NCBI GenBank assembly: GCA_001785865.1
Contig: MFUZ01000002.1
Span: 22,128-86,127, forward strand
Length of the DNA stretch: 64,000 nucleotides
DNA from: Candidatus Nomurabacteria bacterium RIFCSPLOWO2_01_FULL_41_18
Lineage (GTDB): Bacteria; Patescibacteriota; Minisyncoccia; Phycocordibacterales; UBA9973
Direction: 5' to 3'
In this document: positions 35,250 through 37,412 of the stretch, one piece after another
How the letters are laid out: every line of letters starts with the position of its first letter
Position numbering within the stretch: position 1 is the stretch's first letter
Made by a program: the position numbers and the translations under genes
The notes under the pieces: generated by a model
What the model was told of the DNA's origin: nothing
Database searches by the model: none
The model's input: only the letters and a program-made list of their open reading frames with translations

Positions 35250-37412
35250 ATGGATAAATCTGAAGCCAAAAAGAGAACCCGCCCGACTGAACGAGATCAG
35301 GCGTTCGGGCGGGTACTAAAATTGCGGAGTGAGATCGCAAGATTGCGGAGTGCTTACCATGTGGAAAATGCGCCTGGTGTCACTGATGATGTCTACGATT
35401 CCCTTACTCGCGAATTGAAGATACTTTTAGAAAAGTATCCGGAATTCACAGATGAAAACGCTCCGGAAAACAGGGTGGCGGGTAAACCACTGGATAAGTT
35501 TGTTAAAGTGAAGCATCAGACTAGGATGCTTTCGCTCAACGATGTATTTAATGAAGAAGAGTTATTTGATTGGGAGAAAAGAATTAAGAAATTGTTGCAG
35601 GGGGGTGAGGTGAGTTATTTTTGTGAAGTAAAGTTTGACGGATTGGCTGTGTCATTAATATATGAAAACGGCCAATTTGTCCGTGGTGCGACGAGGGGCG
35701 ATGGATTTGTCGGAGAAAACATCACTCAAAATTTAAAGACCATAAATTCTATCCCCCTCTCCTTAACTAGGAGAGGGGTGGGCCGTTCAGGCTCTGAGAG
35801 CCTTCAGGCTCGAAGAGGTGAGGTGAATGGAGTTGTCCCCGCATTCCTAGAAATCCGTGGTGAAGCTTTGGTTTCCAAAAAAACATTAATAAAATTGAAT
35901 ATAGAAAACGAGAAAAAAGGTGATCAATTTTTTGCGAATACCAGAAATGTGGCAGCAGGAAGCTTGCGACAGCTTGATCCACAGCTTGTAGCTGAAAGAA
36001 AATTAGATTTTGTTGCCTATGACCTAATCGAAGCAAATTCTTTGCAAACTTTGCTAAATCACTCAGAAAAACATGCATATCTAAAAAATATAGGTTTCAA
36101 AGTTGAAAAATTAGAAGCTAAATGTAAAAATTTAAGCGAAGTAATTGCTTTTATAAAAAAATTTGAAAAAATAAGACCAGATTTCCCATACGGCACGGAC
36201 GGGATCGTGATCTCAGTAGACAACTTGAAGATGCAGGAAACTCTTGGAGTTGTCGGTAAAGCGCCACGCTTTATGGTGGCCTTCAAGTATCCAGCGGAAA
36301 AAGCTACGACCATCCTAAAAGAAATTTTGGTAAATGTCGGACGTACTGGAGTCCTCACACCGCTTGCAGTTTTTGAGCCGACTTTGGTGGCCGGCTCTCT
36401 GGTATCGAAAGCGACCTTGCACAACATGGATCAGATCGATAGGCTCGATCTCAAGATAGGGGACACTGTAGTGATAGAGAAAGCCGGCGATGTGATCCCA
36501 AAAGTTGTCGAAGTTTTGATCAGAATGCGTACAGGAAAAGAGAAGAAATTCAAAATGCCGGAAAAATGCCCGACTTGTGGAGGTAACGTGGAGAAACTGA
36601 AGATTTCCTCCGGATTCCTCCAGCCTTCGGCTAGAACCTTCCCCGTTCAGAAATCTTCAGTTTCTCCACGTTCAGTGGCCTTCTATTGCTCCAACCCAAA
36701 ATGTCCGGCAAAGGATGAAAGATATTTAGAGCATTTTGTGTCGGTTTTTGAAATATATGAGCTTGGACCGAAAATTTTAAGGCGTTTTAAGGATGAAGGC
36801 TTGATTACGGACGCCGCAGACATATTTACACTTACTAAAGAAGATATTGCTCCTTTGGAGAGGTTCGGAGAAAAATCAGCAGAGAATATAGTAGAAGAAA
36901 TAAAAAACAAAAAGAAAATATCGTTTTCAAGATTTATTTGGGCGCTCGGTATATTGCATGTGGGGGAAGAGACTGCGAGAGATCTGGCACAACACTTTGG
37001 TACTTTGGAAAAATTAATTTCTGCTGTTAATCACAATCAAACAGAAATAGATAGCATCGAAAATATTGGTCCAGCTGTGTTAAAAAGTGTCGATAATTTT
37101 TTTCAGGACAAGAATAATCTGAATTTTATTAAAAAACTGCAGGAAAACGGGGTAGTGATAGAAAAAAAAGAAAAGAGAAAAAAGGGGAAGTTTACCGGAC
37201 TCACTTTTGTCTTGACTGGCACGCTCTCCGGCATGTCGCGAGAGATAGCCAAAGAGAAAATAATGTCTTTGGGAGGTAAAGTGTCTGGCTCGGTTTCAAA
37301 ACATACTTCATGCATCGTTGCTGGCGTAGAACCTGGGTCTAAATTGAAAACAGCGGAAAAGTTGGGAGTAAAAGTCTTGAATGAGAAAGAATTTTTAAAT
37401 ATGCTAGGATAG
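35250..37412 (+). CDS. ligA: NAD-dependent DNA ligase LigA (carries two in-frame repeat insertions)
   Basis: An adenylation-domain 'KxDG'-type region, OB fold, a Zn finger 'CPTCGGNV...CSNPKC', HhH and C-terminal BRCT. Confidence 0.95.
35754..35826. repeat. family-1 repeat inserted in-frame in ligA (encodes ...[26 protein letters not shown]...)
   Basis: CCCCTCTCCTTAACTAGGAGAGGGG hairpin, then GGCTCTGAGAGCC, then CAGGCTCGAAGAGGTGAGGTG. This is the reverse orientation of the 6114 element with an extra module. Confidence 0.75.
36597..36660. repeat. family-2 palindromic element in-frame in ligA zinc-finger region (encodes [19 protein letters not shown])
   Basis: Terminal inverted repeat CTGAAGATTTC...GAAATCTTCAG flanks the TTCCTCCAGCCTTCGGCTAGAACCTTCC core. 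Confidence 0.8.

Follow-up and report, generated by a model that had tools for sequence, protein, structure and literature searches.

In-frame hairpin repeats in the loops of an intact DNA ligase gene from a Candidatus Nomurabacteria bacterium

Analysis of a 64,000-nucleotide stretch of the genome of Candidatus Nomurabacteria bacterium RIFCSPLOWO2_01_FULL_41_18 (contig MFUZ01000002.1, positions 22,128 to 86,127; hereafter the window) shows that ligA, the gene for the NAD-dependent DNA ligase, carries short hairpin-forming repeats of two families within its reading frame. The gene itself is intact, and we consider it probable that it was colonised at the DNA level by small, selfish hairpin repeats that are tolerated in loops of the protein. 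The original prediction, made from the letters of the window, had recognised two in-frame insertions, one per family. Both are confirmed, being stop-free and absent from E. coli LigA, but their total has to be raised: at least two more segments of the gene are element-derived. The features of ligA, in window coordinates, are as follows.

35250..37412, + strand: ligA, NAD-dependent DNA ligase, intact (720 amino acids, Pfam domains, E. coli alignment, invariant residues)
35277..35314, + strand: third in-frame hairpin, 38 nt; approximately 12 residues (amino acids 10-21) in the N-terminal helix; folding z -5.5
35598..35615, + strand: putative family-1 relic QGGEVS; GGGGTGAGGTG, equal to the family-1 tail, directly before the KxDG motif
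35753..35830, + strand: family-1 element CCCCCTCTCCTTAACTAGGAGAGGGG..., a hairpin CCCCTCTCC-N5-GGAGAGGGG with tail GGTGAGGTG; DNA folding z -4.8
35783..35812, + strand: 30-nt hairpin nested in the family-1 element; the same composite is found in P0024 and P0027
36585..36672, + strand: family-2 element, an 88-nt hairpin encoding N446-R474, between Cys440/443 and Cys480/485
36585..36607, + strand: left arm of the family-2 element; its outer 12 nt (AACGTGGAGAAA) are the native N-V-E-K codons
36618..36642, + strand: conserved family-2 tip CTCCAGCCTTCGGCTAGAACCTTCC; 7-bp stem closed by a 3-nt loop, then the likewise conserved ACCTTCC
36650..36672, + strand: right arm of the family-2 element; the outermost 12 nt (TTTCTCCACGTT, which encodes VSPR) match the native left flank in reverse complement

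The open reading frame (ORF) runs uninterrupted from ATG to stop over 720 codons. Its product matches the Pfam models PF01653 (adenylation, 9.6e-82), PF03120, PF12826 and PF00533, with the OB (1.6e-30), HhH and BRCT domains recognised, and gives a full-length alignment against E. coli LigA (5TT5, E-value 1.2e-148). K128, D130 and G131 of the KxDG motif are invariant in the LigA alignment, and so are the four cysteines of the Cys4 zinc finger (C440, C443, C480 and C485) across 61 aligned homologs. The closest database relatives are LigA proteins of Candidatus Nomurabacteria and Paceibacterota with 68-76% identity. Metagenome assemblies can produce inverted chimeras, and one might therefore regard the palindromes as assembly or amplification artefacts, or ligA as a pseudogene. 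The chance of this is next to negligible: besides the intact 720-residue frame with all its domains, an independently deposited ENA protein (P0001) has 100% identity to the window LigA over 95% of the query, and related elements lie internally in over 100 contigs that stem from many different studies. No frameshift or stop is found in ligA, and orthologs do not have the inserted segments as a conserved native feature. The earlier claim of tolerated loop insertions rather than pseudogenisation therefore stands, given the intact frame, the full set of catalytic and structural domains and the four retained cysteines. From this tolerance the inserts would also appear to be neutral.

Both segments fall in gaps of the alignment with E. 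coli LigA (2OWO/5TT5). The first gap lies opposite query residues 174-189 and 193-195, flanked by 'IPLKLH' and 'GENIPARLEVRGE', and the second opposite residues 452-472, between the zinc-finger cysteine pairs. The family-2 insert is thus located inside the zinc finger, as had been proposed, on the basis of the E. coli alignment and the 61 homologs with their cysteines kept; the predicted Cys4 zinc finger appears to be retained despite the insert. The Pfam model of the zinc-binding domain (PF03119) gives no match in the window LigA in the Pfam scan. It is listed for a minority of the LigA homologs, and those compared (P0020, P0022, P0031 and P0037) all have a short zinc-finger loop. An AlphaFold2 model of the protein is of moderate quality, with a mean predicted local distance difference test score (pLDDT) of 69. 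Among the regions concerned the score drops below 50 only at residues 177-192 and 453-476, and predicted strands at 446-451 and 476-480 bracket the second insert. Low-confidence segments between well-defined strands, as modelled here, are what would be expected for protruding loops, and the model supports this placement.

The family-1 element occupies an adenylation-domain loop ahead of the motif EVRGE (site 1), where it encodes approximately L172-G194 in place of the native 'xKPF' of the empty allele, a net gain of 20 residues. Its span, previously given as 35754-35826, is slightly larger (35753-35830) and includes the nested second hairpin, which most family-1 alleles do not have. The hairpin CCCCTCTCC-N-GGAGAGGGG is also found at 6128, 28461 and 59224, copies that are flanked by a second stem (ACCTCACCCC/GGGGTGAGGT). 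Family 1 is both intergenic (these three copies) and genic, and within LigA it uses three reading frames. The QGGEVS segment looks like the relic of a further family-1 insertion; a 30-residue form of this pre-KxDG segment occurs in 24 of 121 homologs and has the length of the full LLPPSPLQGEGQGGEVNYFCE allele. The N-terminal hairpin at 35277-35314 is shared with P0002 only among the LigA homologs, and no other DNA copy and no repeat family were found for it in the sequences compared.

Elements of a similar kind are seen in other genes of the window. An RNase R/II-like gene at 56786-58816 (- strand) contains an in-frame family-1-type element at about 58105-58160 (ITSPQPSPGEERGKAPSP; + strand CCCCTCTCCTCTCCAGGAGAGGGTTGGGGTGAGGT), and is a further housekeeping gene of the window with a hairpin insert in frame that is predicted to be translated. 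A pseudopilin-like ORF at 32730-33440 (+ strand) carries an in-frame hairpin at 32784-32846 with 16-nt arms (GGGATGACCCATTCGA / TCGAAGAGGTCATCCC), within the N-terminal leader and ahead of the prepilin motif GMTYVELIVV. Its peptide RSETQARRG resembles that of the hairpin nested in ligA.

The place of the family-2 element was predicted correctly, in contrast to its extent. The 64 nt originally reported (36597-36660) are the centre of a perfect inverted repeat, with arms of 23 bp (36585-36607 / 36650-36672) that are 100% complementary, and hence the element is 88 nt long and includes the VSPR residues. Its RNA minimum free energy is -51.2 and its DNA folding z -9.0. The N-V-E-K codons that form the outer left arm are conserved in ligA orthologs with an empty zinc-loop site. 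Three further copies of family 2 are present in the window:

38144..38229, + strand: copy in truB (KNSSAFLHATRGPFRVQNS), in frame; arms of 22 nt, 1 mismatch; 22 truB orthologs lack it
43759..43842, + strand: copy in pheS, in frame; +26 amino acids against the empty allele IKDKKDYVLRTH
45831..45916, + strand: copy in pheT, in frame; L031 and L018 have a family-2 copy at the identical site

The four copies obtain nhmmer E-values of 7.8e-17 to 1.4e-14, and all are read in one open frame per orientation. The sites in truB, pheS and pheT are empty in most orthologs. Folded as single-stranded DNA, six hairpins of the window yield z values of -4.8 to -9.3, with none of 200 shuffles folding as well.

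Comparison of the copies shows which parts of family 2 are conserved. The unit is 48 nt long (AAR-AAT-TCN ... CAR-AAT-TCN) and consists of a conserved 25-nt tip on a stem of approximately 21 bp that differs per site. Its two AAT codons are exactly 16 codons apart, and of 78 unique peptides 68 have asparagine at -4 and 74 have it at +4. An inner stem (AAGAATTC/GAATTCTT) is shared by the family-2 copies and also by families with different tips, whereas the outer arms are unrelated (median pairwise identity 31%). The arms have a median length of 21 nt, and 119 of the 123 stems of at least 14 nt contain two mismatches or fewer. The tip occurs in both orientations, encoding unrelated peptides (LLHPSGGTF versus GRFRPKGG), and its conservation is therefore at the level of nucleotides and not of peptides. 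A UNCG tetraloop as a sign of RNA structure was ruled out, the tip pairing as a 7-bp stem with a 3-nt loop.

These observations also bear on the idea that the segments are ordinary lineage-specific loops of variable length. It is true that the same loops vary in length among distant LigA proteins. Identical nucleotide sequences, however, recur in unrelated genes and in intergenic DNA, the hairpins are far beyond chance, and conservation is seen at the nucleotide level in both orientations, which makes this explanation extremely unlikely.

The distribution of family 2 was determined on 132 analysable copies, taken from related loci and from a metagenome scan with the tip pattern (103 stretches). 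Of these, 123 (93%) are intragenic, lying within spanning open frames. Most are found in LigA (29), MnmA (20), an FAD-linked oxidase (13), the CCA-adding enzyme (10) and PurH (8), followed by PheT and PheS (7 each), LeuRS (5), Dus (4) and UvrA (3); TruB is also among the hosts. The metagenome scan alone contributes 13 copies in LigA, 4 in PheT and 5 in PheS. Viral contigs scanned with the tip gave no match, and a comparison with Rfam (gathering thresholds for the whole window, E<=1 for 35.2-46.3 kb) returned only transfer-messenger RNA (tmRNA) and tRNAs and no match to the elements. The reading frame is close to fixed: 94 ORF-borne copies are forward, 27 are reverse and 2 are exceptions, so that 121 of 123 use one frame per orientation, with the forward orientation favoured by about 3.4:1.

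The open frames are also informative on whether the inserts are translated at all. A stable hairpin between identical codons at a fixed spacing of 48 nt could suggest that the insert is excised from the mRNA in an intron-like fashion, or that the ribosome hops from one AAT codon to the other in the manner of T4 gene 60 or the byp elements of yeast mitochondria, and long perfect stems in mRNA should indeed impede ribosomes. Nevertheless this is very unlikely. Only about 50-58% of the hairpins' frames are stop-free (58% in a six-frame count), against the 123 of 132 copies in continuous open frames. In addition, insert lengths preserve the frame at every site examined and no stop follows the would-be take-off codon. 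As the interior of the inserts is kept open, neither removal from the mRNA nor bypass accounts for the pattern. Frameshifts at the elements were considered as evidence for RNA removal and rejected. The only ones seen, in pheT of two public metagenome-assembled contigs (L018 at about 18727-18740 and L029 at about 17931-17945), are located in runs of A away from the hairpins and are probably homopolymer assembly errors.

In related genomes the same LigA loops are occupied time and again. Among approximately 200 related LigA genes these loops hold many unrelated hairpin inserts or none, and the frame is always intact. We analyzed 80 ligA loci from species-representative genomes, with 73 loci compared at the zinc-finger loop and 78 at site 1. 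The zinc-finger loop ranges from 42 to 222 nt, with the 42-nt form (KKELVAYYC) in 5 loci and a 57-nt form in 21; long hairpins (84-222 nt) are present in 36 of the 73 loci, all in frame and with tips of many unrelated families. About half of the loci have an empty site 1 (xKPFPEYLEVRGE), and the others carry family 1 or diverse hairpins there. Places that are repeatedly occupied are the N-terminus, the segments before KxDG and before EVRGE, residues ~220-270, the zinc-finger hairpin and the HhH region. Occupancy differs even between relatives: P0054 and P0107, which are 92% identical in core columns, have different families in the zinc loop, and the loop is empty in P0030 and P0056 and filled in P0075.

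A census of hairpins with arms of 14 nt or more, covering 1.4 Mb of sequence, gave 212 long hairpins, about 10 times the number in shuffled sequence, of which 114 lie within open frames. Per 100 kb there are 25 of them in ligA versus 4.9 elsewhere, and within the ligase they cluster near residues 160-190, 220-270, 420-470 and 560-600. At hot-spot positions of the tip-bearing hairpins in coding truB and ligA, perfect palindromes without a core are also found (36-46 nt, loops of 0-2 nt), several of them made up of a smaller palindrome (TGGGAGCT-N-AGCTCCCA) twice in tandem. Examples, with others similar, are:

L079, 15190-15225: core-less palindrome in truB
L064, 10552-10593: core-less palindrome in ligA
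L006, 10774-10819: core-less palindrome

In the window itself, the intergenic region at about 31230-31300, between the pilC-like and pilin genes, contains a copy of a multi-hairpin family (AAGGAGGGGAGGAATCCCTCTCCTCCTTTGGAAGGAGGAGTGCCCGAAGGGCGAGGTGGTG) that in other genomes occupies the LigA zinc loop as ITTPSPLLNKEGR..PPxEGGVPKGRGG.

The stems differ from site to site and remain paired. L081 and L082 (LigA identity in core columns 93%) have the tip of the zinc-loop element in opposite orientations between essentially the same arms, and several arm differences are compensated. The window stem takes in about 12-16 nt of native conserved codons, its right arm (VSPR) being the exact reverse complement of the N-V-E-K codons. 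L031 has a similar arrangement with its own flank (GAAGTGGCGAAA / TTTCGCCACTTC), the stem reaching 15-16 nt into conserved native codons; 4 of the 6 differences between its arms and those of the window are compensated. Near-perfect pairing of the arms is thus retained despite divergence between lineages, as in coding palindromes maintained by conversion. That the right arm should invariably copy the native left flank in inverted form was rejected as a rule. The entire hairpin is confined to the variable insert in 18 of 21 filled zinc-loop alleles, and the stem reaches native codons only in the window, L031 and L002 (3 of 21), on one side only. In L081 both flanks contribute: judged against L187, a relative with an empty site, its outer left and inner right arm look native and the palindrome is a mosaic of both flanks. 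Recent common descent of the zinc-loop allele shared by the window with L031 and L083 is unsupported, the core identity being 76% against 82-83% to relatives without the allele.

Stems that stay nearly perfect while their arm sequences diverge, a tip conserved in many genomes, a concentration in a limited number of housekeeping genes (mostly nucleic-acid-handling) and the bias towards the forward orientation could also point to structured elements that benefit the host. In this case selection would maintain hairpins in mRNA or DNA for expression or decay (RNase III, pause sites), or for replication or recombination. We regard such a role as unlikely, though less so than the explanations discussed above. 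Presence of the elements is patchy, with close relatives empty or carrying an unrelated family at the same loop, the tip is found in either orientation, and nothing in Rfam matches the elements. Moreover, mismatches on the gene-sense strand of the stems are A.C in 52 cases versus G.T in 21, and for the site-specific outer arms, counted in forward copies, 27 versus 7; this excess of A.C over G.T is the opposite of what mRNA pairing, which tolerates G.U, would produce. Selection on mRNA pairing is hence unlikely to be behind the stems. The asymmetry, in which A.C also exceeds G.T on the forward strand of the element, was considered as proof of a strand-specific DNA hairpin and rejected as such, because the reverse-oriented outer arms are too few (3:3) to separate the orientation of the element from that of the gene.

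Colonisation by selfish hairpin repeats, the reading that we prefer, would proceed in several steps. During replication or repair, the elements may form single-stranded DNA hairpins and in this state spread and persist. Copies would survive only where the frame is kept, no stop arises and a loop tolerates extra sequence, and the same few loops would be reoccupied because copies persist only under these circumstances. Once a tip is in place, templated copying over the hairpin axis (template switching or intra-palindrome conversion) could keep the arms complementary, and could also lengthen the stem into host codons, as in the right arm of ligA opposite N-V-E-K. Turnover appears to be fast: tips are inserted or inverted between their arms, one family takes the place of another, and copies decay until short relics are left. 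The extra peptides would be near-neutral passengers on LigA.

Several points weigh against this interpretation. No transposase or other enzyme has been identified, and neither a clean target-site duplication nor a fixed terminal repeat was found. Family 2 keeps to one frame per orientation although its consensus is open in five of six frames, and therefore random insertion followed by a stop-codon filter is insufficient as an explanation. Its hosts comprise about 20 housekeeping proteins with roughly 27 sites, so the pattern could partly consist of old, vertically inherited insertions. Since identity to the nearest relatives of the window reaches only about 76% overall and about 82% in conserved columns, a strictly matched pair of empty and filled alleles is not available for its ligA. 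The near-perfect stems could reflect selection for a host function rather than conversion. Finally, it is from frame continuity and stop statistics that the hairpin inserts would seem to be read through by the ribosome as extra peptide loops.

A more speculative extension, to which we give only a small chance, is that the family-2 superfamily, with its varied tips and shared AAGAATTC/GAATTCTT inner stem, is an unrecognised mobile system specialised for coding sequence. It might insert or be swapped at palindrome centres in a fixed frame as a strand-specific single-stranded DNA hairpin and then convert flanking host codons into palindrome, possibly with a dedicated hairpin-recognising enzyme. 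If true, housekeeping proteins of Patescibacteria would be continuously remodelled by templated palindrome-building and not by ordinary transposition.

Among known systems the elements come closest to the Rickettsia palindromic elements (RPEs), which were reportedly described by Ogata and colleagues in 2000 as short palindromic repeats in frame in protein-coding genes, including housekeeping genes. These are said to be translated and surface-located, and to have been read as selfish DNA tolerated by the protein. RPEs measure approximately 100-150 bp and are conserved along their whole length. They are mentioned in PMC1779305 and PMC6649704, and in the discussion of the latter they are said to lose repeat identity over time. 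By description, not by sequence, the window elements resemble them as palindromic repeats in frame in essential or housekeeping genes; a repeat present in several unrelated genes, in frame, stop-free and absent from orthologs is precisely what is found here. Differences are that only the 25-nt tip (within a 48-nt unit) is conserved, whereas the long stem is site-specific, and that the stems stay near-perfect and can extend into host codons. In addition, the host phylum is Patescibacteria, and tip inversion, hot spots reused by many families and the locked reading frame are not known from RPEs. In kind the elements are RPE-like; what sets them apart are the short tip on a site-specific stem, the paired stems, the inversion, the shared hot spots and the locked frame. 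Literature searches on the candidate phyla radiation, Patescibacteria or Nomurabacteria brought up no description of such elements.

Hairpins in protein-coding genes with matching codons on either side are also known from the byp elements of Magnusiomyces mitochondria and from T4 gene 60. The former are mobile, G+C-rich hairpins in genes of an A+T-rich genome, untranslated and frame-breaking. The elements described here share the matching codons but are in frame and stop-free, and do not interrupt the reading frame. Both byp elements and gene 60 bypass are cited in PMC6649704. That paper reports long near-perfect inverted repeats in coding sequence of Nematomorpha mitochondria, with both arms translated. 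These palindromes are perfect or absent and dynamically gained and lost, and conversion or template switching was proposed to keep their arms identical (PMC6649704). The likeness lies in the near-perfect coding palindromes, and a comparable template switching or conversion may act on family 2. In Nematomorpha, however, the arms encode conserved native protein and no dispersed tip is present, whereas here we are dealing with loop insertions in a bacterial chromosome, with family-specific tips shared between unrelated genes and with arms that for the most part do not encode conserved native protein.

Small mobile repeats of other bacteria offer further comparisons. Repetitive extragenic palindromic sequences (REPs) and REPINs, associated with RAYT transposases, are very short repeats with a conserved hairpin that are thought to be mobile as single-stranded DNA (PMC3116915, PMC3733652). 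Family 2 is likewise a very short, hairpin-forming repeat with a conserved hairpin. REPs, however, are extragenic and have a GTAG/CGTC tag beside the hairpin (PMC3116915, PMC3733652), as opposed to the 93% intragenic copies of family 2; neither tetranucleotide occurs in the conserved family-2 tip, the flanks not having been screened for them. Small dispersed repeats of Nostoc, attributed to Elhai and colleagues in 2008, reportedly insert into palindromic contexts and nest in one another. Bacterial MITEs (miniature inverted-repeat transposable elements) are non-autonomous repeats, occasionally in frame, with target-site duplications and terminal inverted repeats that are conserved between copies (PMC10969869). 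The present elements are also miniature repeats in frame, with nesting as in Nostoc, but the long inverted repeats are unrelated between copies (31% median) and have only the inner AAGAATTC/GAATTCTT in common. AATTC is found on both sides of family 2 at the 48-nt spacing; because GAATTC is its own reverse complement, a duplication of 4-5 nt cannot be told from the stem. No other direct repeats were seen at the insertion sites in ligA, truB and pheS.

Overall, a DNA ligase can carry four element-derived segments, one of them within its zinc finger, and keep every functional motif. This is routine in a whole bacterial group, as loops of LigA, MnmA, PheS/T, LeuRS, UvrA and others repeatedly hold hairpin repeats. 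It bears on gene calling, on domain detection (the window LigA escapes the zinc-finger Pfam model) and on identity-based clustering of Patescibacteria proteins. The elements also provide a natural, sequence-rich system for the creation and maintenance of perfect palindromes in coding DNA, a question left open by the Nematomorpha mitochondria, and allow study of how selfish DNA finds insertion-tolerant positions in essential proteins.

Some further features of the window were recorded. Directly upstream of ligA lies a complete type IV pilus cluster (23725-35240), identified by eye from the translations and comprising a pilM-like gene, pilB, a response regulator, pilT, pilC, a pilin, a prepilin peptidase and several pseudopilins; L081 has similar N-methyl and peptidase A24 genes ahead of its ligA. 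A hairpin with 22-nt arms and a 32-nt loop, unrelated to family 2, is found in the gap between pheT and gyrB (46207-46282); it overlaps the longest gyrB frame at the latter's 5' end and could represent a terminator or a further element. A full-length tmRNA gene is present at 10168-10567 (+ strand, 113.6 bits). The tRNA-Ile(TAT) gene at 13768-13841 is flanked by two 41-nt copies of a repeat (98% identical; AGCTCAGTTTCCGCCAGAGGCGGACCAGCCTTTGGCTGAGG) at 13475-13515 and 13842-13882, and is followed at 13888-13923 by a second tRNA-like 3' half that is 86% identical to 13797-13832 and was not called as a tRNA. Two divergent tRNA-Ser genes, at 17209-17298 (- strand) and 17391-17478 (+ strand), have GCT and ACT anticodons according to ARAGORN, Rfam having called the + strand gene only. 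They are separated by a perfect 30-nt palindrome at 17300-17329 (TACGTAATTAAATAC/GTATTTAATTACGTA).

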